Shown here: positions 16,815 to 24,638 of the stretch, in pieces
Numbering within the stretch: position 1 is the first letter of the stretch
Layout: each line of letters starts with the position of its first letter
Sequence record: SRR20825006_2439
Strand: one strand, 5' to 3'
DNA length: 39,320 nt
Program-made: the position numbers and the translations under genes
Notes under the pieces: model-generated
Database searches by the model: none
What the model was told of the DNA's origin: nothing
What the model saw: only the letters and a program-made list of their open reading frames with translations

Positions 16815-16899
16815 ATTCAGCTGCATCTGATCGCTTTTGCTGGGCCGTATCCTATGTTTTTTGGCTTCAAACTGTTTCCACCGTTACAGGACCACATTC

Positions 16900-19623
16900 A
16901 TGCACGATTTCCGGTTTCGCGCTGCCTTGGCGGGCGCGGTCTCTCTCCTTGCACTTCACGCCTGCGGAAATGCGAATTCCGCTTCTGAGGCAAGCCTCGG
17001 TTCGCAGACCCAGCCTGTCCAGATTCAAGTACCGCCCGCAGGGCAGTTGCCGACGGATGTTACACCGCTGGCCTACCGGCTGGAGCTGAAAACTGATCCA
17101 GATGCCGACAGTTTCTCGGGTAATGTAGCCATTGATGTGGCCCTGACAGCGCCGCATGCGCGCATCTGGTTGCATTCGGTGGATCAGACGGTGCTGTCGA
17201 CCAAGGCCGTGCTGGACGATGGAACACATATCCCGGCAACTTTTACTGGCAATCAGGCACCGGGCGGAGTTTCAAGGCTCGACTTCGACTCGCCGATCCC
17301 GGCGGGCACGGCCACGCTCGAAATCAGCTATACAGCGCCCTACAATATGGGCCTTGCCGGTCTCTACAAGGCGGTTCAATCCGATACGGACTATCTTGCC
17401 ACCCAGATGGAAGCGATTGATGCGCGCCGGATGGTGCCCTCATTTGACGAACCGCGCTTCAAGACACCGTGGAGCGTGACCGTCACCGCGCCAGAAGGCA
17501 TGCAGGTCGTCTCCAATGGCGAGGAAATCAGCGCCGAACCGGCCGAAGACGGTTGGACCCGGCATGTCTTTGCCGAAACTCGCCCGATCCAGTCCTATCT
17601 GGTCGCCCTCGCAGTCGGCCCTTACGAGATGCGGCCCGCCCCGGCCATTCCGGCCAATGCCCTGCGCGAGGCGTCGGTGCCCCTGCGCGGCTTTGCTGCC
17701 CGCGGCAAGAGAGACCAGCTCAGCGAGGCACTCGACATCACTGACGAGATGTTGCTCTGGCAGGAGGACTATTTCGACTATTCGTACCCCTATGGAAAAC
17801 TGGACCTGATCGCCGCGCCGGAATTTGCCTATGGCGCGATGGAGAATGCCGGCGCAATCATCTATCGCGAAGCCGCCCTCCTGATGAACGAACAGACCAG
17901 CCTGTCACGCCGCCGCCGCATCCTGACGACACATGCCCACGAACTGGGCCATCAATGGTTCGGCAATCTCGTCACGCCGAAATGGTGGAACGATATCTGG
18001 CTGAACGAGGCCTTTGCGACCTGGATCAGCTACAAGACGATGGACGGGGTTGACCCGGACGGCGAGTGGGGCCTCAGCCCAATCCTGGCAGGGCTCAGCG
18101 CGATGGGGGCCGACAGTCTTCAATCGGCGCGCCAGATTCGCAATCCGATCAACACCAATGGCGATATTCTCGACGCGTTCGACTCCATTACCTATCGCAA
18201 AGGCGGCAGCGTGTTGAACATGTTCGAGACCTATCTGGGCGAAGAAGCCTTTCGCGAAGGTATCCGCTTGCACATGCGTCGCTTCGAGGATGGCGTCGCT
18301 GATGCCGACGATTTCATGCAGAGCCTCGCCGACGGGTCCGGCCAGCCGGATATTGTTGAAGCCTTCACCAGCTATATCAACCAGCCAGGCATCCCATCGC
18401 TGGATGTCGCCGTGTCCTGCCCTGCTCCAGATGCGGGCCTGATCACGGTCACTCAAAAGCGCTATGCGCCGCTTGGCTCTGATATTGATACCAATGCTCA
18501 GACCTGGAACGTGCCGTTTGCTGCGCGCCTGAAAGGGCCTGTGGGTGATCGCACGATCCGGCAGATGCTGACCGCACCGGTCACCGAGATTCCTCTGGAT
18601 GGCGATTGCCCCGACTGGGTGATGCCAAATGCCGGCGGCACGGGCTATTGGCGCTTCGATACGAATGCGGAAAACCTGACGGCGCTGATTTCCAACTTTG
18701 ACAGCTTGTCTGACGCCGAACAGATCATGTTTGCGGATGCACTGACCTCCGGTTTCCGTGCAGGGCGGATCAGCACCGATGACCTGATGGCTGGACTGGC
18801 CGCAACCTCAAGCGGTCATCCGCGTGCGGTTTCTGAAGGGTTCGGCATTATTGGCACGCTCGACCGCATGCTGGAGCCATCCGAGCAAGCGGGCCTTCGC
18901 GCGTGGGTCCAGCGCACCTATGGACCGTTGGCCGAATATCTGGAATCCCGTCCGGCCACGGCGCTGAGCCAGCAGGAGATGCTTTTGCGCGACAGGCTAT
19001 ATGGCTTGTTGCTGGAATATGGCGAGCGCCCCGCTGAGCGCCGCGCCCTGCTCGCCCGTGCCCGGCAGTATGTCGGACTCGAAGGCAGCCCGGACGCGAC
19101 GGCGCTTGCGCCGGAGGATCTCTCCACGGCCATGATCATCGGCATAGAGGATGGCGGCGCTGACTTCTATGAAGCTGCCAAGGCCTACGTCACCACTGCA
19201 ACCAATCAGAATGAACGCTCGACAATCCTGAGAGTATTGGCCAGTCGCGGAAGCAAGGATGTCGTGTCAGACCTGTTCTCGGCGGTTCTGAACGGCCCGA
19301 ACTCGACCGACGAAGTCTTTACGGTTGTCTATGGCGCCATGGCCAACCCGGCAGCACAAGACACCGCATGGGATTTGATAACCACAAACTTCGAGACGGT
19401 TGTGGAGCGCATGCCCGAAATCCGTCAGCCAAAGCTCGCGGGCCTGACGGGATATTTCTGCAGCGTCAGAAAGGCCGCAGAGGCGGAAGACTTCTTTCAA
19501 CAGAATGCGCAGCTGATCCCAGGCTATGAGCGATCCCTGGCCCAGGGCACGGAGAAGGCAACGCTCTGCAGCGCGCTAAGGGCTCAGAAAGCGTTGGATG
19601 TGAACAACTTCTTCCAACAGTAA
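16900..19623 (+). CDS. M1 family zinc aminopeptidase, lipoprotein
   Basis: GAMEN, HELGH-x18-E (WLNEAFA), YRKG motifs. Lipobox-like LLALHAC after ATG 16900. Confidence 0.93.
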   Translation: MHDFRFRAALAGAVSLLALHACGNANSASEASLGSQTQPVQIQVPPAGQLPTDVTPLAYRLELKTDPDADSFSGNVAIDVALTAPHARIWLHSVDQTVLSTKAVLDDGTHIPATFTGNQAPGGVSRLDFDSPIPAGTATLEISYTAPYNMGLAGLYKAVQSDTDYLATQMEAIDARRMVPSFDEPRFKTPWSVTVTAPEGMQVVSNGEEISAEPAEDGWTRHVFAETRPIQSYLVALAVGPYEMRPAPAIPANALREASVPLRGFAARGKRDQLSEALDITDEMLLWQEDYFDYSYPYGKLDLIAAPEFAYGAMENAGAIIYREAALLMNEQTSLSRRRRILTTHAHELGHQWFGNLVTPKWWNDIWLNEAFATWISYKTMDGVDPDGEWGLSPILAGLSAMGADSLQSARQIRNPINTNGDILDAFDSITYRKGGSVLNMFETYLGEEAFREGIRLHMRRFEDGVADADDFMQSLADGSGQPDIVEAFTSYINQPGIPSLDVAVSCPAPDAGLITVTQKRYAPLGSDIDTNAQTWNVPFAARLKGPVGDRTIRQMLTAPVTEIPLDGDCPDWVMPNAGGTGYWRFDTNAENLTALISNFDSLSDAEQIMFADALTSGFRAGRISTDDLMAGLAATSSGHPRAVSEGFGIIGTLDRMLEPSEQAGLRAWVQRTYGPLAEYLESRPATALSQQEMLLRDRLYGLLLEYGERPAERRALLARARQYVGLEGSPDATALAPEDLSTAMIIGIEDGGADFYEAAKAYVTTATNQNERSTILRVLASRGSKDVVSDLFSAVLNGPNSTDEVFTVVYGAMANPAAQDTAWDLITTNFETVVERMPEIRQPKLAGLTGYFCSVRKAAEAEDFFQQNAQLIPGYERSLAQGTEKATLCSALRAQKALDVNNFFQQ

Positions 19624-19635
19624 TCGGCCCGGCAC

Positions 19636-19654
19636 GGCCCGGATAACGGGCTTT
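19636..19654 (+). terminator. Short hairpin plus T-tract after the aminopeptidase gene
   Basis: GCCCG-GATAA-CGGGC followed by TTT. Confidence 0.4.
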
Positions 19655-19680
19655 GTCGCTGATCGAATTTGTCTGAGATC

Positions 19681-19897
19681 TCCGGCTTGTATCTTGTCCG
19701 GGTCGCTTCTTGCCCAAATGGGAAGCGGCGGTCCGGTCGGGGTATGCTCAGGCCCCGGCCAGCGGATGGGAGGCGGCCCGCTGCAGGGGCACGACTTCCC
19801 ACACCAATATGAATACCGTCCCTGCCGAAGGCGCCGCCTTCCGTCCGCAAGGACCTTGGATGACAGGAAACCGGAAGGGCACACGCCCTGTCCGGCT
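19681..19897 (+). ncRNA. Structured intergenic element resembling an IS110-family non-coding end (bridge-RNA-like), no transposase
   Basis: Begins CTTGTAT (19686). Has nested stems GTCGCTT/AAGCGGC, GCCCC/GGGGC with inner CAGCGG/CCGCTG, and GTCC-GCAA-GGAC. Bounded by a TCCGGCT direct repeat (19681-19687, 19891-19897). The IS110 resemblance is from recall. Confidence 0.45.
19863..19895 (-). terminator. Hairpin terminator downstream of gdh (possibly bidirectional)
   Basis: CCGGA-AGGGC-ACAC-GCCCT-G-TCCGG stem, followed on the minus strand by TTTCC, 16 bp after the gdh stop. Confidence 0.5.
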
Positions 19898-19910
19898 CTT
19901 GGTGCAACGA

Positions 19911-22900
19911 TCAGTGGCGCATGAACTGGCGCAACGCGTCGGCCGCAAGCGCAAATCGCGCAAACGCCCAATTGCGATCCTTGCCCAGCGTATGCAACTC
20001 TGCGAGCAATGCCTTGCGCGCATCATTGCGCTCGGCGAGCCAGGCATCTGCCCCGTCTCCGGCGAGAGCCTTCTCTGTTGCATCCGCCTGCATCCGAACC
20101 AGTTCGTTCAACAGGCGACGGCCCGCCACGCGATCCCAATAATCTGCATGCAGCAGATTGTCCCGCGCCATGGCGCGAAGCCGGTCGATGCGCAGCTGGT
20201 CGCCAATCGTGTAGAAAGCCTTGCCGGCCGCCTCCACACTGACACCCGCCTTGCCAGCCAGATCGACCACGAGCAGCCCTTGGGCAAACTGGCCCATCGC
20301 AGCCGCCCATCGCGAAATCTCTTCCGACGCGCCGCGCTTCATCAGGCTACGCACTTCGCGCTCGATGCGCGCAGCCGGGAACGGCGAGTGAATGCCGGCG
20401 AGAATGGCCTTGAACTCGTTCAGAGGCGCTTCGGTATGTTGCACGGCGTCGCCGACATGCAGGTCCGGATGGGTTTCAATGAACCAGAGCGCCGCATCGA
20501 CCATGGCGCTTGCCGCATGCAGACGCAGATCGATTTGCACATCCGCAGGCACGATCGTGTCGAGCTGGTCGACCTCGCGCTGGAAGCCGTCAAAGTTCAA
20601 AACGGCACGCGCCGCTTCGAGCCCGCGCGCGACTTGCGCATTGTCGCCGCCGGTCACTTCGCGCAGACGCAGCAGGGCCACCGGCCCGGCCATGTCCAGC
20701 ACACGATTGGCAATGATCGTCGCGATAATTTCCCGCTTCAGGCGATGGTTCGACATCGCCTTTGAATAGGTGTTGATCGGACTCGGGAAGTAATTGACCA
20801 ACAGGTCTTCGAAATACGGATCGTCCGGAATATCGGAGGCCACAATATCGTCGAACAGAGTGATCTTCGACCAGGCGAGCAAGACGGCTAATTCCGGCCG
20901 GGTCAATGGCTGGCCGCGCTCGGCACGCACCTTCATCTCACCGGTCTCCGGCAAGGTTTCCAGCGCGCGGTTCAATACGCCTCGGTCTTCCAGATACTCC
21001 ATCAGGCGCTCAAGCGCATCATGGTCTTCCTTGGCCGTCGTTTCGGCCAGGGTCAGCGCAAAGGTCTGTGTATAATTATGACGCAGGACAAGCGCCGCCA
21101 CGTCACTGGTCATCTCCGCAAGAAGGTCGTTGCGGTCTGCCGGATCGAGGTCGCCCTCACGAACCGCCTCAGCAGCCAGAATCTTGATGTTCACTTCGTG
21201 GTCAGACGAATCGACGCCGGCGGAATTGTCGATCGCGTCTGTATTGATCCGTCCCCCATGCAGGTCAAACTCGATTCGCCCGGCTTGGGTGACGCCCAGA
21301 TTGGCCCCTTCCCCGATGACTTTCACCTTCAGCTGATTTGCATCAACCCGGATCGCATCATTGGCACGGTCACCGGCGGCCGCATGAGTTTCATGCGCGG
21401 CTTTCACATAGGTGCCAATGCCGCCGAACCAGAGCAAGTCCGCATCCGTCTTCAGCAGGGCGTGGATCAACTCGTCGGGTGTGACCGCATCCTTTGACAA
21501 GCCACTCAGCGCCTTGATCTCATCGCTCAGCGTGATCGACTTGGCGGAGCGCTCGAAGATTCCGCCGCCTTTCGACAGGATTCCTTTGTTGTAGTCCGCC
21601 CAGCTCGATTGCGGCTTGTCGAACAGACGCTGACGTTCAGTCAGGTTCTTGGCAGCGTCCTGAGGGTCCGGGTCGATGAAGATGTGCATGTGGTTGAAGG
21701 CCGCGATCAGCCGGATTTCCGGCGATAGCAACATGCCATTGCCAAACACGTCTCCACTCATGTCGCCCACACCGATCACGGTGAAAGGTTCGGTCTGGAT
21801 GTTCTTGCCGAGTTCGCGGAAGTGACGCTTGACCGCTTCCCAGCCTCCCCGCGCAGTAATACCCATCTTCTTGTGATCGTAGCCAACCGAACCACCCGAC
21901 GCGAACGCATCGCCCAGCCAGTGGCCCATCTCCTCACTGATCGCATTGGCGGTGTCGGAGAAGGTCGCCGTGCCCTTGTCCGCCGCCACGACGAGGTAGG
22001 GGTCTTCACCATCCCAGACAATCGTGTCCGCCGGGTGGGTGACCTGCCCCTCCACGAGATTGTCCGTGATACCGAGCAACGCCCGGATGAATTCCTTGTA
22101 GGCATCCCGTCCAGCCTCGAACCAGGCATTGCGGTCAGAACGATCCGGCAATTGCTTTGGCAAGAATCCACCCTTGGAGCCGACCGGCACGATGACCGCA
22201 TTCTTCACCTGCTGCGCTTTCACAAGGCCCAGAACTTCGGTGCGATAGTCTGATGCACGGTCCGACCAGCGCAGCCCCCCGCGCGCAACCGCGCCAAAGC
22301 GCAAATGCACGCCCTCGACCCGCGGGCTCGACATATATATCTCGCGGAAGGGTTTCGGCTCCGGCAGGTCTTCCAGTTCGCGGCTGGCAATCTTGAGGCT
22401 GACAAAACTGTAGGGCGCGCCATCGCCATTGGTCTGGTAGAAATTGGTCCGCTGAACGGCCAGGATCAGATCAGCGAGACGGCGCAGCACCTGATCGTCT
22501 GCCAGCGCCGACACGTCGCGTAATGCGTCCTCGATCTCTGCGCGCATTTTCTCGGCTTCATGCGTGCGTTCGGCGAGTGACATATCGCGCGCCGGATCGA
22601 AGCGGATAGCGAACAGGTCCAGCAATTTCTGGGCAATCGCCGGATAAGTCGAAAGCGCCGTCTCCTGAACATATTGCGGTTGATCCATGCCGCTCTGGCG
22701 GCGATATCCGGCGAGCGCCCGGATCAGGGCCGCATCGCGCCAGCTTGCGTCAGCGCTGAGCACCAGCCGGTTGAAGCCGTCATTTTCGGCCCGTCCGCTC
22801 CAGACCGCAACAAACGCATCCTCCAGCGCGGTTCGGATTGCATCAAGGTCAATTGCTGCGCCGGCCGTCGCGCACATGACAACATCGTGGATCCAGTAGG

Positions 22901-24638
22901 TCTCGGGCGCATCGTCGGCTGGCTTTTCCGTCGGACGGACCGGATAGCCGGTCTCGAAATCCACGAAGAAACCCATTTGCTCGAAGATTGGCACACAGGC
23001 AGACAGCGGGATCGAACCATTGCGGGAGTATATCTTGACCCGTATCTTGTTGTCGGAATCCCCTTCCAGCCGGTAGGCGCGCGTCAGGATGGGGTGACCG
23101 GCAGACAAATTTGCCATCGCCGCAACATCGCGCATCGCCTCGTCAGGCCCGAAGGCTTCGCGATAGGCTGCATTGAAAGCCCCGATGAAGGAACGTGCAT
23201 TTTCCTGATGTGCGCGTTCAAGGTCAGACTGGACCAGCGCCGACCGGAAGCCTTGCTCCCATGTTCGCGTGATCTGGACGATACGCTTCTCGAGCGCCGC
23301 AAGGTCCGGCAAGGGATGGCCCTGTCCCAGCCAGATTTCGAAATGGACCCGGACCAGGGTCTCGGAATCAAAATACGGTCGGAAGCGCGTCACATGCCCA
23401 TTATAAGCGGTGACCAGTTCCTGCGTGATGCGTTGACGCATGGCGGTGTCATAGGCTTCACGCGGCACATAGACGATTGCGGTGACAAACCGGTCAAATT
23501 GGTCCTGTTGCACGAACAGGCGCGTGCGTGGCCGCCCGATCAGATGCAGCGCGCCGACAATGATCGGATGGAGGATTTTCGACGAGGTCTGAAACAACTC
23601 ATCGCGCGGCCAGGTTTCCAGCAGATTGGTCAACGCCTTTTCGGTATGTCCGCCGGGCGTTGCGCCAGAAGCTTCGAGGATGGCGGCGATTCGACGGCGG
23701 ATCAGCGGGATGGAACGGGCCGTTTCGTCATAGGCCTCGGCGGTGAACAGGCCGAGGAAGCGAACTTCACCATTCACCCTGCCCTGCGCATCATATTTCT
23801 TCACGCCGACATAGTCGCAAGCGACCCGGCGGTGCACGAGGCTGGTCAGCGTCGATTTGGCAACAAGGATCGGATACGGTTCCGACAGATGTGCGCCAAT
23901 CTCAGGCGTCAACACGAGGGGTTCGGCCTCGCGAGACAGAACGTTCAGTTCTTCATCGCGCAGCACGCCCAGATTGGAGCCCTCCACCATGATCGGCTCT
24001 TCGGGCAGCACTTGCCCATCGGCATTTGTCTCGAATTCGTATTCGCGGCAGCCGAGGAACACGAAATGTTCCCGCGAAAGCCATTTCAGGAAGGCAACTG
24101 CTTCGTCGCGGTCCATCTCTTTGAGATGCGTGACGCCCTTCAGCCGGTCGATCTCCTGCTGCATGCGCGCCCGCATGGGCTCAAAGTCCGATACGGCAAC
24201 CGCATTGTGCGCCAGCGCCAGGCGAACTCCGGCTTTCAGGCGCGCCGCCTCATCATGGGTCAGGATCGGCAAATGAACCTGGATGACGGACACGCTGCGC
24301 CCGTCCTGTCGTTTGACAATCGGATGAAACAGGGCCGCGACCTCAAACCCCTGCGCGCCGCACTCGCCAAGCACCGAATCCACGAGGAATGGCATGTCCG
24401 GGCTGGCGGTCTCTAGAATGGTACGTGACAGGGAGTCCCCGTTTTCCCCATCGACCTCCAGCAGGACGCGCACATCCTGCTCTCCCGGAGCGACCGTCTC
24501 TGCCCATTCCCAATGGCGGCGCGCAAGAAATTTTAGGTCGCCATCCGTCAGTCCGGTGAGGTCTTCGTGCCCTGATTCCCGCTGAATCTGGTCGAAAACT
24601 TGCTCCAACGGCTCATGTGAAGCAGAATTTACTGTCAT
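19911..24638 (-). CDS. gdhB: Large NAD-specific glutamate dehydrogenase (GdhB/GdhZ type)
   Basis: 1575 aa; DMPFLVDS, ARGGLRWSDR, VGSKGGF, AADKGTATFSD, GVGDMSGDVFGNG, EGANLG. Confidence 0.96.
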   Translation of the reverse strand: MTVNSASHEPLEQVFDQIQRESGHEDLTGLTDGDLKFLARRHWEWAETVAPGEQDVRVLLEVDGENGDSLSRTILETASPDMPFLVDSVLGECGAQGFEVAALFHPIVKRQDGRSVSVIQVHLPILTHDEAARLKAGVRLALAHNAVAVSDFEPMRARMQQEIDRLKGVTHLKEMDRDEAVAFLKWLSREHFVFLGCREYEFETNADGQVLPEEPIMVEGSNLGVLRDEELNVLSREAEPLVLTPEIGAHLSEPYPILVAKSTLTSLVHRRVACDYVGVKKYDAQGRVNGEVRFLGLFTAEAYDETARSIPLIRRRIAAILEASGATPGGHTEKALTNLLETWPRDELFQTSSKILHPIIVGALHLIGRPRTRLFVQQDQFDRFVTAIVYVPREAYDTAMRQRITQELVTAYNGHVTRFRPYFDSETLVRVHFEIWLGQGHPLPDLAALEKRIVQITRTWEQGFRSALVQSDLERAHQENARSFIGAFNAAYREAFGPDEAMRDVAAMANLSAGHPILTRAYRLEGDSDNKIRVKIYSRNGSIPLSACVPIFEQMGFFVDFETGYPVRPTEKPADDAPETYWIHDVVMCATAGAAIDLDAIRTALEDAFVAVWSGRAENDGFNRLVLSADASWRDAALIRALAGYRRQSGMDQPQYVQETALSTYPAIAQKLLDLFAIRFDPARDMSLAERTHEAEKMRAEIEDALRDVSALADDQVLRRLADLILAVQRTNFYQTNGDGAPYSFVSLKIASRELEDLPEPKPFREIYMSSPRVEGVHLRFGAVARGGLRWSDRASDYRTEVLGLVKAQQVKNAVIVPVGSKGGFLPKQLPDRSDRNAWFEAGRDAYKEFIRALLGITDNLVEGQVTHPADTIVWDGEDPYLVVAADKGTATFSDTANAISEEMGHWLGDAFASGGSVGYDHKKMGITARGGWEAVKRHFRELGKNIQTEPFTVIGVGDMSGDVFGNGMLLSPEIRLIAAFNHMHIFIDPDPQDAAKNLTERQRLFDKPQSSWADYNKGILSKGGGIFERSAKSITLSDEIKALSGLSKDAVTPDELIHALLKTDADLLWFGGIGTYVKAAHETHAAAGDRANDAIRVDANQLKVKVIGEGANLGVTQAGRIEFDLHGGRINTDAIDNSAGVDSSDHEVNIKILAAEAVREGDLDPADRNDLLAEMTSDVAALVLRHNYTQTFALTLAETTAKEDHDALERLMEYLEDRGVLNRALETLPETGEMKVRAERGQPLTRPELAVLLAWSKITLFDDIVASDIPDDPYFEDLLVNYFPSPINTYSKAMSNHRLKREIIATIIANRVLDMAGPVALLRLREVTGGDNAQVARGLEAARAVLNFDGFQREVDQLDTIVPADVQIDLRLHAASAMVDAALWFIETHPDLHVGDAVQHTEAPLNEFKAILAGIHSPFPAARIEREVRSLMKRGASEEISRWAAAMGQFAQGLLVVDLAGKAGVSVEAAGKAFYTIGDQLRIDRLRAMARDNLLHADYWDRVAGRRLLNELVRMQADATEKALAGDGADAWLAERNDARKALLAELHTLGKDRNWAFARFALAADALRQFMRH

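Follow-up and report, generated by a model that had tools for sequence, protein, structure and literature searches.

A structured RNA element between convergent pepN and gdh genes is one member of a multi-copy putative sRNA family in Hyphomonas

A conserved gap between convergent genes folds on one strand

The stretch of DNA analysed here (the window, 39,320 nucleotides) carries an M1 aminopeptidase gene (pepN, 16837-19623, + strand) that converges on an NAD-glutamate dehydrogenase gene (gdh, 19911-24638, - strand), and the two are separated by a gap of 287 bp (19624-19910), as the original prediction had stated. The aminopeptidase gene has a terminator-like hairpin of its own on the + strand (GCCCG-GATAA-CGGGC then TTTG, 19637..19655), which is kept in orthologues although a consensus scan does not call it, and which lies 5′ of a promoter-like region and outside the sRNA described below. 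Compared with the nearest genome, the gap has 0 mismatches in 287 positions, whereas the two genes beside it carry 109 differences in 3032 bases (72/1823 and 37/1209), mostly at third codon positions. These results show that the gap is under strong purifying selection. The dense structure that had been claimed for the gap was confirmed on the + strand, where the minimum free energy is -147.4 kcal/mol compared to -121.0 ± 5.7 kcal/mol for shuffled sequences (z -4.63) and none of 200 shuffles folded as well. On the - strand, the z-score is -1.07 and 29 of 200 shuffles were as stable.

All parts of the element lie on the + strand. The orthologues of the window's copy are syntenic, and an RNAalifold consensus of four of them contains 64 common pairs. 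The predicted 5′ hairpin is found at 19702..19729 (P1, GTCGCTTCTT/GGGAAGCGGC with loop GCCCAAAT); all of its 10 pairs are kept among the four syntenic orthologues, and the paralogues have a hairpin of variable sequence at this place. It is followed by GGTCC (19730..19734), which pairs with GGACC (19851..19855) inside a conserved CCGCAAGGACC motif to form helix P0 and to close a three-way junction. The positions flanking P0 co-vary in paralogues (CGGGUCC/GGACCCG, CAGGGUCC/GGACCUUG and CCGGUCC/GGACUGG). Comparison of the orthologues also defines hairpin P2 (GGTCGGGGT/GCCCCGGCC with loop ATGCTCAG, 19735..19760), in which the changes preserve pairing and one is double-sided (A-U to G-C).

The long hairpin P3-P5 (19762..19848) was located by a covariance-model match. 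In its base helix P3 (19762-79 with 19830-48), the GCGGATGG/CC.TCCGC part hardly varies within the family, while in the upper helix P5 (GCAGGGGC at 19783-90 with GTCCCTGC at 19818-25) 7 of the 8 pairs change on both sides among the 49 copies. P5 carries a G-poor apical loop of 27 nt (19791-19817) containing CUUCCCAC. The long stem of the original prediction, CAGCGG/CCGCTG flanked by GCCCC/GGGGC, was not upheld, as relatives do not keep it: 57.7% of its cells are paired compared to 57.0% after shuffling, and 212 out of 500 shuffled sets did equally well. Instead, the comparative data pair GCGGATGGGAGGCGG (from 19762) with CCGCCTTCCGTCCGC (ending at 19848), and GGTCGGGGT with GCCCCGGCC. Downstream of the junction, a purine- and A-rich single-stranded linker (TTGGATGACAGGAAA, 19856..19870), which is variable in paralogues and often ends in GCAAAA, leads to a conserved hairpin of the terminator type (19871..19904), in which CCGGAAGGGC-ACAC-GCCCTGTCCGG contains a single bulged G and is followed by CTCTTGGTG. 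The stem of this hairpin is nearly invariant in the 49 copies, with both-side changes at 2 pairs.

The window's copy scores 102.4 bits with the family covariance model (19759-19904). Across the 49 copies, 96.1% of the cells are paired compared to 90.1% in shuffles (0/500 shuffles as good), and 11 pairs have changes on both sides (0/500 shuffles equal). Covariation is present in three core helices. At one P5 pair, G-U and A-U alternate (22 vs 21 copies), which only the + strand fits. In the window's subfamily, the native pairing of the middle arms is -17.5 kcal/mol compared to a mean of -12.7 kcal/mol for swapped arms, and 1 of 21 swaps was as good; the arm-swap result for the middle helices is mixed, with 394 of 1104 distant swaps pairing as well as the native arms and no advantage in subfamily B. 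A palindrome of at least 6 nt precedes P5 in 29 of 40 distinct sequences compared to ~47% of shuffles, a modest excess. Taken together, these results show a structure at the RNA level that is strand-specific and has covarying helices.

Two further ideas about the element were rejected. Kissing of the apical loop with the 5′ domain had no support in a contiguous-helix test (14.0 vs 14.08, with 2964 of 5000 permutations as high), and hence a 7-bp UGGGAAG/CUUCCCA match in the window's copy counts as unproven; gapped duplex energies gave -16.4 for native and -15.2 for swapped combinations, with much noise. A small open reading frame was dismissed since no frame is conserved, gaps of 1-2 nt between orthologues disrupt any reading frame, and the Shine-Dalgarno (SD)-like loops have no start codon after them.

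A multi-copy family in Hyphomonas and its putative transcription signals

The element is one member of a multi-copy putative sRNA family that is apparently undescribed. In the layout common to the copies, a promoter-like motif is followed by two 5′ hairpins, then by a long hairpin whose apical loop is poor in G, and last by a conserved hairpin of the terminator type. With the covariance model of the family core, 20 out of the 28 Hyphomonas genomes gave matches (1-9 each), compared to three weak matches in 123 genomes from 17 other genera of the same family, and no match in 140 genomes from 39 other genera in the rest of the order. Likewise, 18 of 61 relatives matched by blastn and all belong to one genus, and in a pattern search, 47 of 80 among the matches listed are titled Hyphomonas, Hyphomonadaceae or unclassified Alphaproteobacteria. 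Plasmid and phage collections gave no match to the family. The family appears to be confined, among the genomes searched, to one genus, which the titles of the records give as Hyphomonas, a marine genus. An identical copy of the window's element is present in the record titled Hyphomonas sp. L-53-1-40. The paralogues are diverged (median pairwise core identity of 55%; 20 clusters at 70%), and in 19 of the 49 the 5′ loop holds a perfect complement of 8-14 nt to the 3′ tail of 16S rRNA. A pattern of the 3′ hairpin matches 3-13 times per genome in five genomes. The same hairpin also ends other, longer repeat RNAs.

With Rfam 15 at gathering thresholds, there were no hits in the window and none at the element in 20 related loci, and at E-values up to 10 only sub-threshold matches of microRNA type appeared (best mir-4667, 22.4 bits vs a threshold of 68). 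ARAGORN found neither a tRNA nor a tmRNA, and a full-text literature search with Hyphomonas and sRNA terms, part of which was loosely set, returned no report of such an RNA. The fallback of the original prediction, a novel structured non-coding RNA, is the reading that the evidence supports.

Comparison with the paralogues suggests a promoter-like region at 19661..19695 (+ strand). Here, GATCGAAT (19661-68) aligns with the family upstream motif CCAATCCGAC, which is seen across the upstream regions of the 49 copies, and TATCTT (19690-95) aligns with the -10-like box of the family, TATnCT, ~7 nt 5′ of the first hairpin. In the window's copy, the upstream motif is diverged and the spacer is 3-4 nt longer than in the family, and a simple consensus scan gave no canonical sigma-70 promoter or terminator at this copy. 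As the mark of a possible wider regulon, the promoter motif CAATCCGACCGGGT is enriched in genome G001 only (50 vs 23 in the control) and not in G028 (25 vs 21) or G026 (20 vs 18), and most of its sites lie elsewhere than at sRNA copies. The tail after the terminator hairpin is CTTTTGGTG in most paralogues, with only 4 T in 8 positions in the window's copy. Since the hairpin abuts the stop codon of the convergent dehydrogenase gene, it may terminate transcription on both strands. Metatranscriptome assemblies (four runs from four studies) cover 19349-20300 piecewise and at low depth, the gap and the flanking genes alike, and one piece spans the sRNA and gdh (19713-20300); these assemblies carry no starts, ends or strand and so speak neither for nor against the sRNA.

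The neighbours of the copies, together with the shared upstream motif and -10-like box, argue for the RNA being a gene of its own. An open reading frame and GC3 heuristic could call the downstream neighbour for 41 copies and placed it on the opposite strand in 30 of them, and in the window the element is followed by the 3′ end of gdh, which is convergent; the upstream genes are unrelated to each other and co-oriented with the element in only 25 of 44 copies. A compact three-way junction with alternative pairings and a 3′ terminator is what a cis-regulatory element might look like, either a riboswitch-type leader or a 3′-UTR element of the aminopeptidase mRNA, but this arrangement of neighbours, the hairpin that the aminopeptidase gene has for itself and the absence of an Rfam riboswitch match make it very improbable.

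The position of the element between convergent genes, with the hairpin abutting the stop codon of the downstream gene in many copies, also raises the possibility of a DNA-level repeat (a REP- or MITE-like palindrome) or a plain bidirectional terminator that has no RNA function of its own. REP elements are short palindromes present in tens to hundreds of copies. Like these and like bidirectional terminators, the hairpin is an imperfect palindrome that lies 3′ of convergent genes and recurs across the genome, and empty sites in related species carry a simple bidirectional terminator. However, its number of 6-13 hairpins per genome is far below the copy number of REP families, and it makes up only the 3′ part of a conserved RNA structure of much larger size, with ~170 nt of conserved, covarying structure upstream of it. 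In addition, the stability is specific to one strand, the only one that the G-U pairs fit, and the absence of changes extends over the whole gap including the promoter-like part. We therefore consider this explanation highly unlikely.

Relation to IS110 elements

The element had been proposed to be an orphan IS110 bridge RNA or a non-autonomous IS110 derivative. This proposal failed every test that was run (recombinase neighbours, models and copy identity), and that the element is part of an IS110 mobile element could not be demonstrated. No copy lies beside an IS110 recombinase, with 0 recombinases among 10 upstream neighbours of other family copies, and tblastn of five IS110 proteins against 60 family loci (355 kb) gave a single 26-amino acid fragment more than 1 kb from a copy. 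Genome G001, the nearest one, which is 99% complete, is 100% identical to the window across the 287-nt gap and has at least four copies of the family, yet neither a PF01548 hit nor a relative of the L211 transposase was found in it. Across the genus, an IS110-like protein occurs in 7 of 28 genomes compared to 20 of 28 for the RNA.

The proposed ends did not hold either. The positions of the quoted motifs were correct (TCCGGCT at 19681-87 and 19891-97, ACAGG at 19863-67), but TCCGGCT is a common 7-mer (18 in the window vs about 8 expected), the second of the two proposed end copies forms the 3′ arm of the terminator hairpin that the whole family shares, and the first is not kept in orthologues (CCAGGCC in L002). 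The supposed terminal inverted repeat CTTGT/ACAGG is a 5-mer with a mismatch. Empty sites, which had been proposed as a check, do exist, but the TCCGGCT footprint is absent from them. CTTGTAT is confined to the orthologue group of the window's copy, and other paralogues have TATnCT. In a bridge RNA, two internal loops have strands that can pair with the target site and with the ends of the element itself. In the consensus fold, the long hairpin has a single internal region and the 27-nt apical loop and is thus one long hairpin instead of two internal-loop hairpins, and no element ends are definable. An IS110 element would be expected to have near-identical copies within a genome, ends with a repeated core and empty sites that lack the element alone. 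Copies of that kind were not seen, the paralogues having a median identity of ~55% and the orthologues being syntenic.

A relation of another kind, in which the family descends from IS110 bridge RNAs or still serves them, was also considered. Such an RNA could be a "half bridge" in which the first hairpin, of the target-binding type, is retained and a terminator takes the place of the recombinase gene, and it would act in trans with a recombinase or be domesticated. Several likenesses point this way. The motifs that the original prediction named, an initial CTTGTAT and a CCGCATGACAAGGACAGG ahead of the ATG, are indeed present in the IS110 left ends of Hyphomonas: these start with CCCTTGTAT/CTTGTCT and end with CCGCATGACAAGGACAGG..ATG, and the window has GGCTTGTATCTTGTCC and TCCGCAAGGACC..GATGACAGGAAAC. 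One Hyphomonas IS110 type has a GCGGATGAGAG...CTCATCCGC helix in its left end, and the first hairpin of two types, built on GCGGATGAGAG/CTCATCCGC or GCGGACGAGG/CTCGTCCGC, resembles P3. Positions 4-97 of the sRNA model gave local hits on the sense strand in the left ends of four types, at only 5.6-10 bits; an IS110 left-end hairpin matches P1 of the orthologue in the same genome over 30 nt (83%, E 0.07); and in genome G026 an IS110 lies ~200 nt upstream of 3 of 7 relatives of the sRNA family that are ~430 nt long.

In contrast, the models do not connect the two groups. On 27 IS110 loci, the sRNA model reached at most 12.9 bits (E 0.09), and direct comparison of the sRNA with IS110 left ends gave E=1 with nhmmer and E of at least 0.07 with blastn. 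In the other direction, a covariance model of 20 Hyphomonadaceae IS110 left ends (R2) matched no sRNA copy in 35 sources and, with filters off in 20 sources, gave overlaps of at most 5.1 bits (E >2), although its reach is limited since it also missed three other IS110 subtypes. Taken together, these results make descent from, or service to, IS110 bridge RNAs improbable. The shared short motifs and the IS110 elements near the longer relatives are consistent with a distant ancestry or an insertion-target relation, and it is a long shot that IS110 guide RNAs gave rise to the family as a domesticated offshoot, or that the family is a natural docking partner of IS110 elements. If it were an offshoot, recombinase-less "half-bridge" RNAs, each a first guide hairpin on a common scaffold, would have been re-used across the genus for host regulation, and the SD-complement 5′ loops of 19 of the 49 paralogues could dock on 30S subunits.

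Proposed function and comparison with known RNAs

We put a probability of about 0.6 on the reading that ~19702-19904 (+ strand) is an independent gene for a structured sRNA of ~200 nt belonging to a multi-copy "sibling" family. We infer that it is most likely a regulatory sRNA acting in trans, which is the weakest part of the reading. As suggested by the paralogues, the RNA would be transcribed from its own promoter, made up of the family motif AATCCGAC and then the TATnCT box, and would terminate at the conserved hairpin, which also lies where the convergent gene ends. The base helix of P3 and the terminator helix, both near-invariant, could provide a common scaffold or a protein-binding module, while the variable single-stranded parts, namely the G-poor, C/U-rich apical loop (CUUCCCAC in the window's copy) and the loops of the 5′ hairpins, may give each sibling its specificity through base pairing. 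The likely targets would be purine-rich ribosome-binding regions of mRNAs. An sRNA that depends on Hfq would combine a promoter of its own, a Rho-independent terminator ending in a U-tail and binding to Hfq; Hfq is encoded in all four genomes searched, and the U-tail of the window's copy is weak.

Within orthologue groups, conservation is 0.76 for the apical loop and 0.85-0.99 for the stems, the opposite of a classic seed, which favours a role as a scaffold or in protein binding. Two near-invariant helices, GCGGAUGGG/CCCAUCCGC and CCGGAAGGG/CCCUGUCCGG, share one consensus, and stem sequences are held much more strictly than pairing alone would demand (0.96-0.99 within orthologue groups, with next to no variation across the family). 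The RNA might accordingly be a protein-binding scaffold or sponge in which these double-stranded motifs bind a protein, forming a ribonucleoprotein or a decoy instead of pairing with mRNAs, and the use of the same 3′ hairpin to close other, longer repeat RNAs agrees with this. We regard it as rather unlikely, since no protein stands out as a candidate (the genomes searched yielded neither CsrA nor ProQ), the neighbouring genes are not conserved, and invariant helices are beyond the reach of covariation. The search for CsrA (PF02599) was negative in all 4 Hyphomonas genomes and positive in control genomes, and that for ProQ was negative in all 5 genomes. An RNA that sequesters CsrA/RsmA was rejected on these grounds and because the conserved GGA motifs sit in stems.

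If transcribed as proposed for an independent sRNA gene, the family would be an undescribed one in a group whose RNA biology is almost undocumented, and it is large, structured and multi-copy, with up to nine matches per genome. The conservation of stems above loops points to a protein partner, and in the SD-complement subset the complementarity to the anti-Shine-Dalgarno tail of 16S rRNA is unusually long. The repeated proximity to IS110, in short motifs and in insertion sequences beside longer relatives, marks a place to ask whether guide RNAs and host sRNAs exchange parts; a domesticated offshoot, if true, would link the RNAs of RNA-guided transposons to the birth of a host sRNA regulon.

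Among known systems, the IS110 bridge RNA is encoded in a long non-coding end beside the gene of a DEDD (PF01548) recombinase, according to passages of PMC11208160. As those passages depict it, the bridge RNA resembles the sRNA in its size of ~180-200 nt and in its 5′ stem-loop followed by a long hairpin with unpaired internal strands, and short motifs are common to the sRNA and Hyphomonas IS110 left ends. Unlike the bridge RNA, which in the same passages has two internal-loop hairpins and runs into the transposase gene, the sRNA has one long hairpin and a terminator and does not lie in a non-coding end beside a DEDD recombinase. It also differs in having no element ends or core repeat and in its old, diverged and syntenic copies, and the covariance models are significant in neither direction.

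The Caulobacteraceae are an alphaproteobacterial family related to that of the host. Their sRNA GsrN, as portrayed in passages of PMC5869019, is 106 nt long, depends on sigma-EcfG, usually lies near the stress-response locus and is found by BLASTn in Caulobacteraceae only. GsrN is, in that account, a trans-acting sRNA with a 5′ hairpin, and some Hyphomonas paralogues similarly have a C-rich 5′ loop. In contrast to GsrN, the Hyphomonas element has no GGAAC..CGTT promoter, and architecture and family are different.

Multi-copy families of "sibling" sRNAs are known in Alphaproteobacteria, for example CcsR1-4 of Rhodobacter and AbcR/alpha-r of rhizobia. Like these, the Hyphomonas family has several diverged copies per genome, with a promoter and an intrinsic terminator proposed for each, in genomes that encode Hfq, and its pyrimidine-rich unpaired loops could pair with ribosome-binding regions. 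Unlike these, the Hyphomonas RNA, whose ~200 nt form a three-way junction and a long hairpin, is much larger and more structured, belongs to one genus among the genomes searched, and is conserved most in its stems and not in its loops.

Structure and conservation of the RNA in the convergent gap

The 287-bp gap at 19624-19910 lies where an M1-family aminopeptidase gene (16837-19623, + strand) and a large gene for NAD-specific glutamate dehydrogenase (19911-24638, - strand) converge. The nearest genome, G001, is 100% identical to the window across the gap (0 mismatches in 287 nt), and the flanking coding sequence has 72 mismatches in 1823 nt and 37 in 1209 nt, of which 90 of 109 are at third codon positions. 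If the gap changed at the third-position rate of ~9%, about 25 differences would be expected. On the + strand, the gap folds with a minimum free energy of -147.4 kcal/mol compared to -121.0 ± 5.7 kcal/mol for dinucleotide shuffles (z -4.63; 0/200 as good), which shows that the dense structure noticed in the original prediction is mainly real. On the - strand the fold is unremarkable (z -1.07; 29/200 shuffles equal it), and an asymmetry of this kind arises from G-U pairs in an RNA read from the + strand. The motifs quoted in the original prediction were all found where it placed them. Its long stem CAGCGG/CCGCTG is not conserved (57.7% paired versus 57.0% when shuffled; 212/500 as good), and TCCGGCT, which it described as directly repeated at both ends, occurs 18 times in the window, with its 3′ copy being a terminator arm.

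The RNA, a probable small RNA (sRNA) at about 19702-19904 (+), is one copy of a multi-copy Hyphomonas family, and a side-by-side reading of the family loci showed one common architecture. An upstream motif, CCAATCCGAC..., and then a TATnCT box lie 5′ of the sRNA, followed by the 5′ hairpin P1, the 5′ strand of helix P0 (GGUCC) and the second hairpin P2. The long hairpin comes next, with P3 (GCGGAUGG...CCAUCCGC) as its base and the 8-bp helix P5 at its top, closing a G-poor loop of 25-33 nt. On its 3′ side are the 3′ strand of P0, (A)GGACC, a linker, and at the 3′ end a near-invariant hairpin, CCGGAAGGGC-loop-GCCCUGUCCGG, which in most copies is followed by CUUUUGGUG.

Covariation was measured with R1, a covariance model of the core from P3 to the terminator, built from 37 distinct copies. 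R1 matched the window with 102.4 bits at 19759-19904 (+) and nowhere else in it. When 49 copies were aligned to R1, 96.1% of cells paired compared to 90.1% with shuffled partners (0/500 as high), and sliding the partners by 1-3 columns reduced pairing to 33-54%; an alignment fitted to R1 favours the structure, although the counts are still far from the controls. Both-sided changes were found at 11 of 26 pairs; of these 11, 7 belong to P5, which has 8 pairs. The consensus of four syntenic orthologues (window, L002, L031 and L090) has 64 pairs in P1, P0, P2, P3-P5 and the terminator; nearly all substitutions among the four keep pairing, and P0 is further supported by flanking bases that co-vary in paralogues. 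Since the middle of the long hairpin is poorly alignable, an alignment-free arm-swap test was used. Native 5′ and 3′ arms gave -14.2 kcal/mol versus -12.0 kcal/mol for swapped arms (0/5000 permutations), with 394 of 1104 distant swaps as good as native, and the native-arm advantage is limited to the subfamily of the window (-17.5 versus -12.7; 1/21). The RNA of the window is a selected, strand-specific, compact structure on a family-wide scaffold.

Two further features of the core were observed. The P3 base helix (19762-19770/19840-19848) and the terminator helix (19871-19879/19886-19895) follow one consensus, CGGAWGGG/CCCWKUCCG, and the 5′ strand of each can pair with the 3′ strand of the other (CCTTCCG/CGGAAGG); the common consensus might point to a protein site present twice, or to a switch between two conformations. 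In addition, the palindrome CTGCAG lies at 19780-19785, immediately 5′ of the strand of P5, and folds into a small hairpin in competition with P5. Paralogues have a palindromic hexamer or longer at the same place (such as GTGCAC, ATGCAT, GTCGAC or TGGCCA), and a palindrome of at least 6 nt precedes P5 in 29 of 40 distinct sequences compared to ~47% of shuffles.

Distribution and age of the family

A BLASTN search of 61 relatives with the gap matched 18 genomes, all of one genus. Only G001 and G010 matched over the full length with conserved flanks; the remaining matches cover the 3′ two-thirds or less and lie at unrelated sites, sometimes several per genome. A search of 185,579 species genomes with a degenerate pattern for the 3′ part gave 89 matching stretches. 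Among the 80 of these 89 matches that were listed, 47 are from Hyphomonas, Hyphomonadaceae or unclassified alphaproteobacterial records, and the others (Streptomyces etc.) are without the upstream features. One record, L041, has an element identical to that of the window. R1 detected the sRNA in 20 of the 28 genomes from the genus, with 1-9 matches per genome and four good copies in G001. Outside the genus it gave 3 weak matches in 123 genomes from 17 other genera of the taxonomic family and none in 140 genomes across 39 further genera of the order. R1 matches were only marginal (E at least 0.006) in four complete genomes of the genus, and thus for part of the genus the sRNA was not found. Among copies, core identity has a median of 55%, with 20 clusters at 70%, and orthologues retain their neighbours, as in five copies downstream of a dihydrouridine synthase gene. 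The copies are old, stable paralogues and not recent movers.

The convergent aminopeptidase-dehydrogenase pair is kept across the genus, and the window, G001, G010 and two MAG records are the only places with the sRNA between the two genes. The gap of G034 (L129), where the aminopeptidase tail is 66% identical, is ~75 nt with one plain bidirectional terminator hairpin; gaps of about 30-115 nt occur in a further 8 species, and 6 other loci with the same pair have gaps of ~575-610 nt. Across L129 and L130-L137, gaps of ~57-115 nt hold a single hairpin of this type. The L133 gap gave one weak antisense R1 match (30.7 bits). Since gaps of the G034 type hold a terminator only and G034 carries the family at another place (70 bits), an empty site for the copy in the window exists. 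The original prediction had suggested looking for such a site with a single TCCGGCT; neither TCCGGCT nor any other footprint was found there, and the boundaries are too diverged to map.

Other elements were also seen. A SAM-alpha riboswitch (82 bits) lies at L020:1288-1365 (-), in the same orientation as an sRNA copy and ~135 nt downstream of it. G083 has five ~740-nt repeats, ~87% identical (L202-L206; L209:2710-3441), with the same hairpin type at the end; this genome has only marginal R1 matches, without the sRNA family, and no PF01548 match. In G001, the upstream motif CAATCCGACCGGGT, with up to 2 mismatches allowed, has 50 sites, most of them away from sRNA copies, compared to 23 for the reversed control; it is not enriched in G028 or G026.

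Relation to IS110 ends

The original prediction read the element as an IS110-type bridge-RNA end with no recombinase. As PMC11208160 describes them, bridge RNAs are encoded by the non-coding end that adjoins the recombinase gene, and two internal loops in them pair with the target and the donor. The RNA of the window is not placed in this way, and its consensus fold has one long hairpin with a single internal region and a 27-nt apical loop. No recombinase was found among 10 upstream ORFs of copies, and a search of 60 family loci (355 kb) with five IS110 proteins of Hyphomonas gave one 26-aa fragment only. The fragment (L079:3171-3248), at 1.1 kb from a copy of the sRNA, resembles an IS110 transposase C-terminus. 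In G001, which is 99% complete, neither a PF01548 match nor a relative of the L211 transposase was found; in the genus, IS110-like proteins are found in 7 of 28 genomes versus 20 of 28 for the RNA. R1 scored at most 12.9 bits (E 0.09) against 5 + 22 IS110 loci with filters off, and comparisons of the family with IS110 left ends gave E=1 (nhmmer, family alignment) and E of at least 0.07 (BLASTN). R2, a covariance model built from 20 IS110 left ends of Hyphomonadaceae, recovers such ends at 120 bits, these being within its own training set, and its score never exceeds 5.1 bits at positions that overlap an sRNA copy; the reach of R2 is limited, as three other IS110 subtypes were missed. With no adjoining recombinase, no IS110 protein in G001 and no significant match of R1 or R2 in either direction, these results argue against an IS110 end.

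Other observations speak for a possible, though less likely, link to IS110 guide RNAs. The left-end motifs named in the original prediction are real in Hyphomonas, with IS110 ends that start CCCTTGTAT or CTTGTCT and finish CCGCATGACAAGGACAGG..ATG, and the first hairpin of two IS types, on GCGGATGAGAG/CTCATCCGC or GCGGACGAGG/CTCGTCCGC, resembles P3. G026 has seven ~430-nt repeats (L195-L201; L208:2959-3389), 90-95% identical, with the upstream motif of the family, TTATCCGCCGGGGTC, the same 3′ hairpin, CCGGATGGC..GCCAGTCCGG, without a T-tract, and weak R1 matches (18-28 bits); they are thus longer, recently amplified relatives of the family. At 3 of the 7, an IS110 copy lies ~200 nt upstream, far above chance for 9 IS copies in 3.7 Mb: type a on the same strand at L211 and L214, and type b on the opposite strand at L215. 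The sequence adjoining these IS copies, ..GGGAGGTGAGGGC..CGCCCTATCC(G/A)AC, resembles the sRNA upstream motif. This proximity may reflect targeted insertion beside RNA genes, or remote common ancestry.

Smaller likenesses were noted as well. Hyphomonadaceae IS110 left ends (L211:1305-1485 (+); L242:969-1170 (-)) have the starts and first hairpins given above and finish GACAAGGACAGG before the ATG, and these short motifs recur in the RNA of the window with no model-level similarity. The hairpin of a G010 IS110 left end (L124/L125, ..CTTGTTTCTCACATGCAGG..) and P1 of the orthologue of the window in the same genome (L002:1562-1600) are 83% identical over 30 nt, a match that is not significant (E 0.07).

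Function and known relatives

In 30 of 41 callable copies the gene downstream lies on the opposite strand, and a co-oriented gene upstream was seen in only 25 of 44; together these counts argue against a leader or 3′ UTR. Orthologues differ by indels of 1-2 nt, which speaks against a peptide. We infer that the sRNA has its own transcription; assembled metatranscriptome contigs cover the gap and its flanks alike. Hfq is encoded in the Hyphomonas genomes searched, and CsrA and ProQ were not found in them. Our best guess is that the family RNA is a trans-acting regulator, in which the invariant helices would form the common module, and specificity would come from the variable unpaired parts, namely the apical loop, rich in C and U, and the 5′ loops. 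Within orthologue groups, conservation of the apical loop is 0.76 compared to 0.85-0.99 for stems, which disfavours a simple seed model and gives a substantial share to the alternative that the RNA is a protein scaffold.

In 19 of 49 paralogues, 8-14 nt of the P1 or P2 loop are perfectly complementary to the 3′ tail of 16S rRNA, with AAAGGAGGUGAUCC as the longest such stretch; carriers include L088:2404-2642 (-), L034, L049, L020 and L070, with AAAGGAGGTGATCC as the maximum. As controls, the same measure gave 0/49 for antisense and 22/980 for shuffles. In structure prediction the motif is mostly unpaired, and no start codon follows it. The copy in the window is without the complement, and this observation on the paralogues may matter more than the copy itself.

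No Rfam 15 family and no plasmid or phage record matched the RNA, and a light and partly poor search of full-text literature did not turn up a paper on an RNA of this kind in Hyphomonas. Multi-copy sibling sRNAs are known from other Alphaproteobacteria. In its working, the RNA of the window would be most like these, with the Hyphomonas RNA being larger and more structured, and we file it with the chromosomal trans-acting sRNA families.
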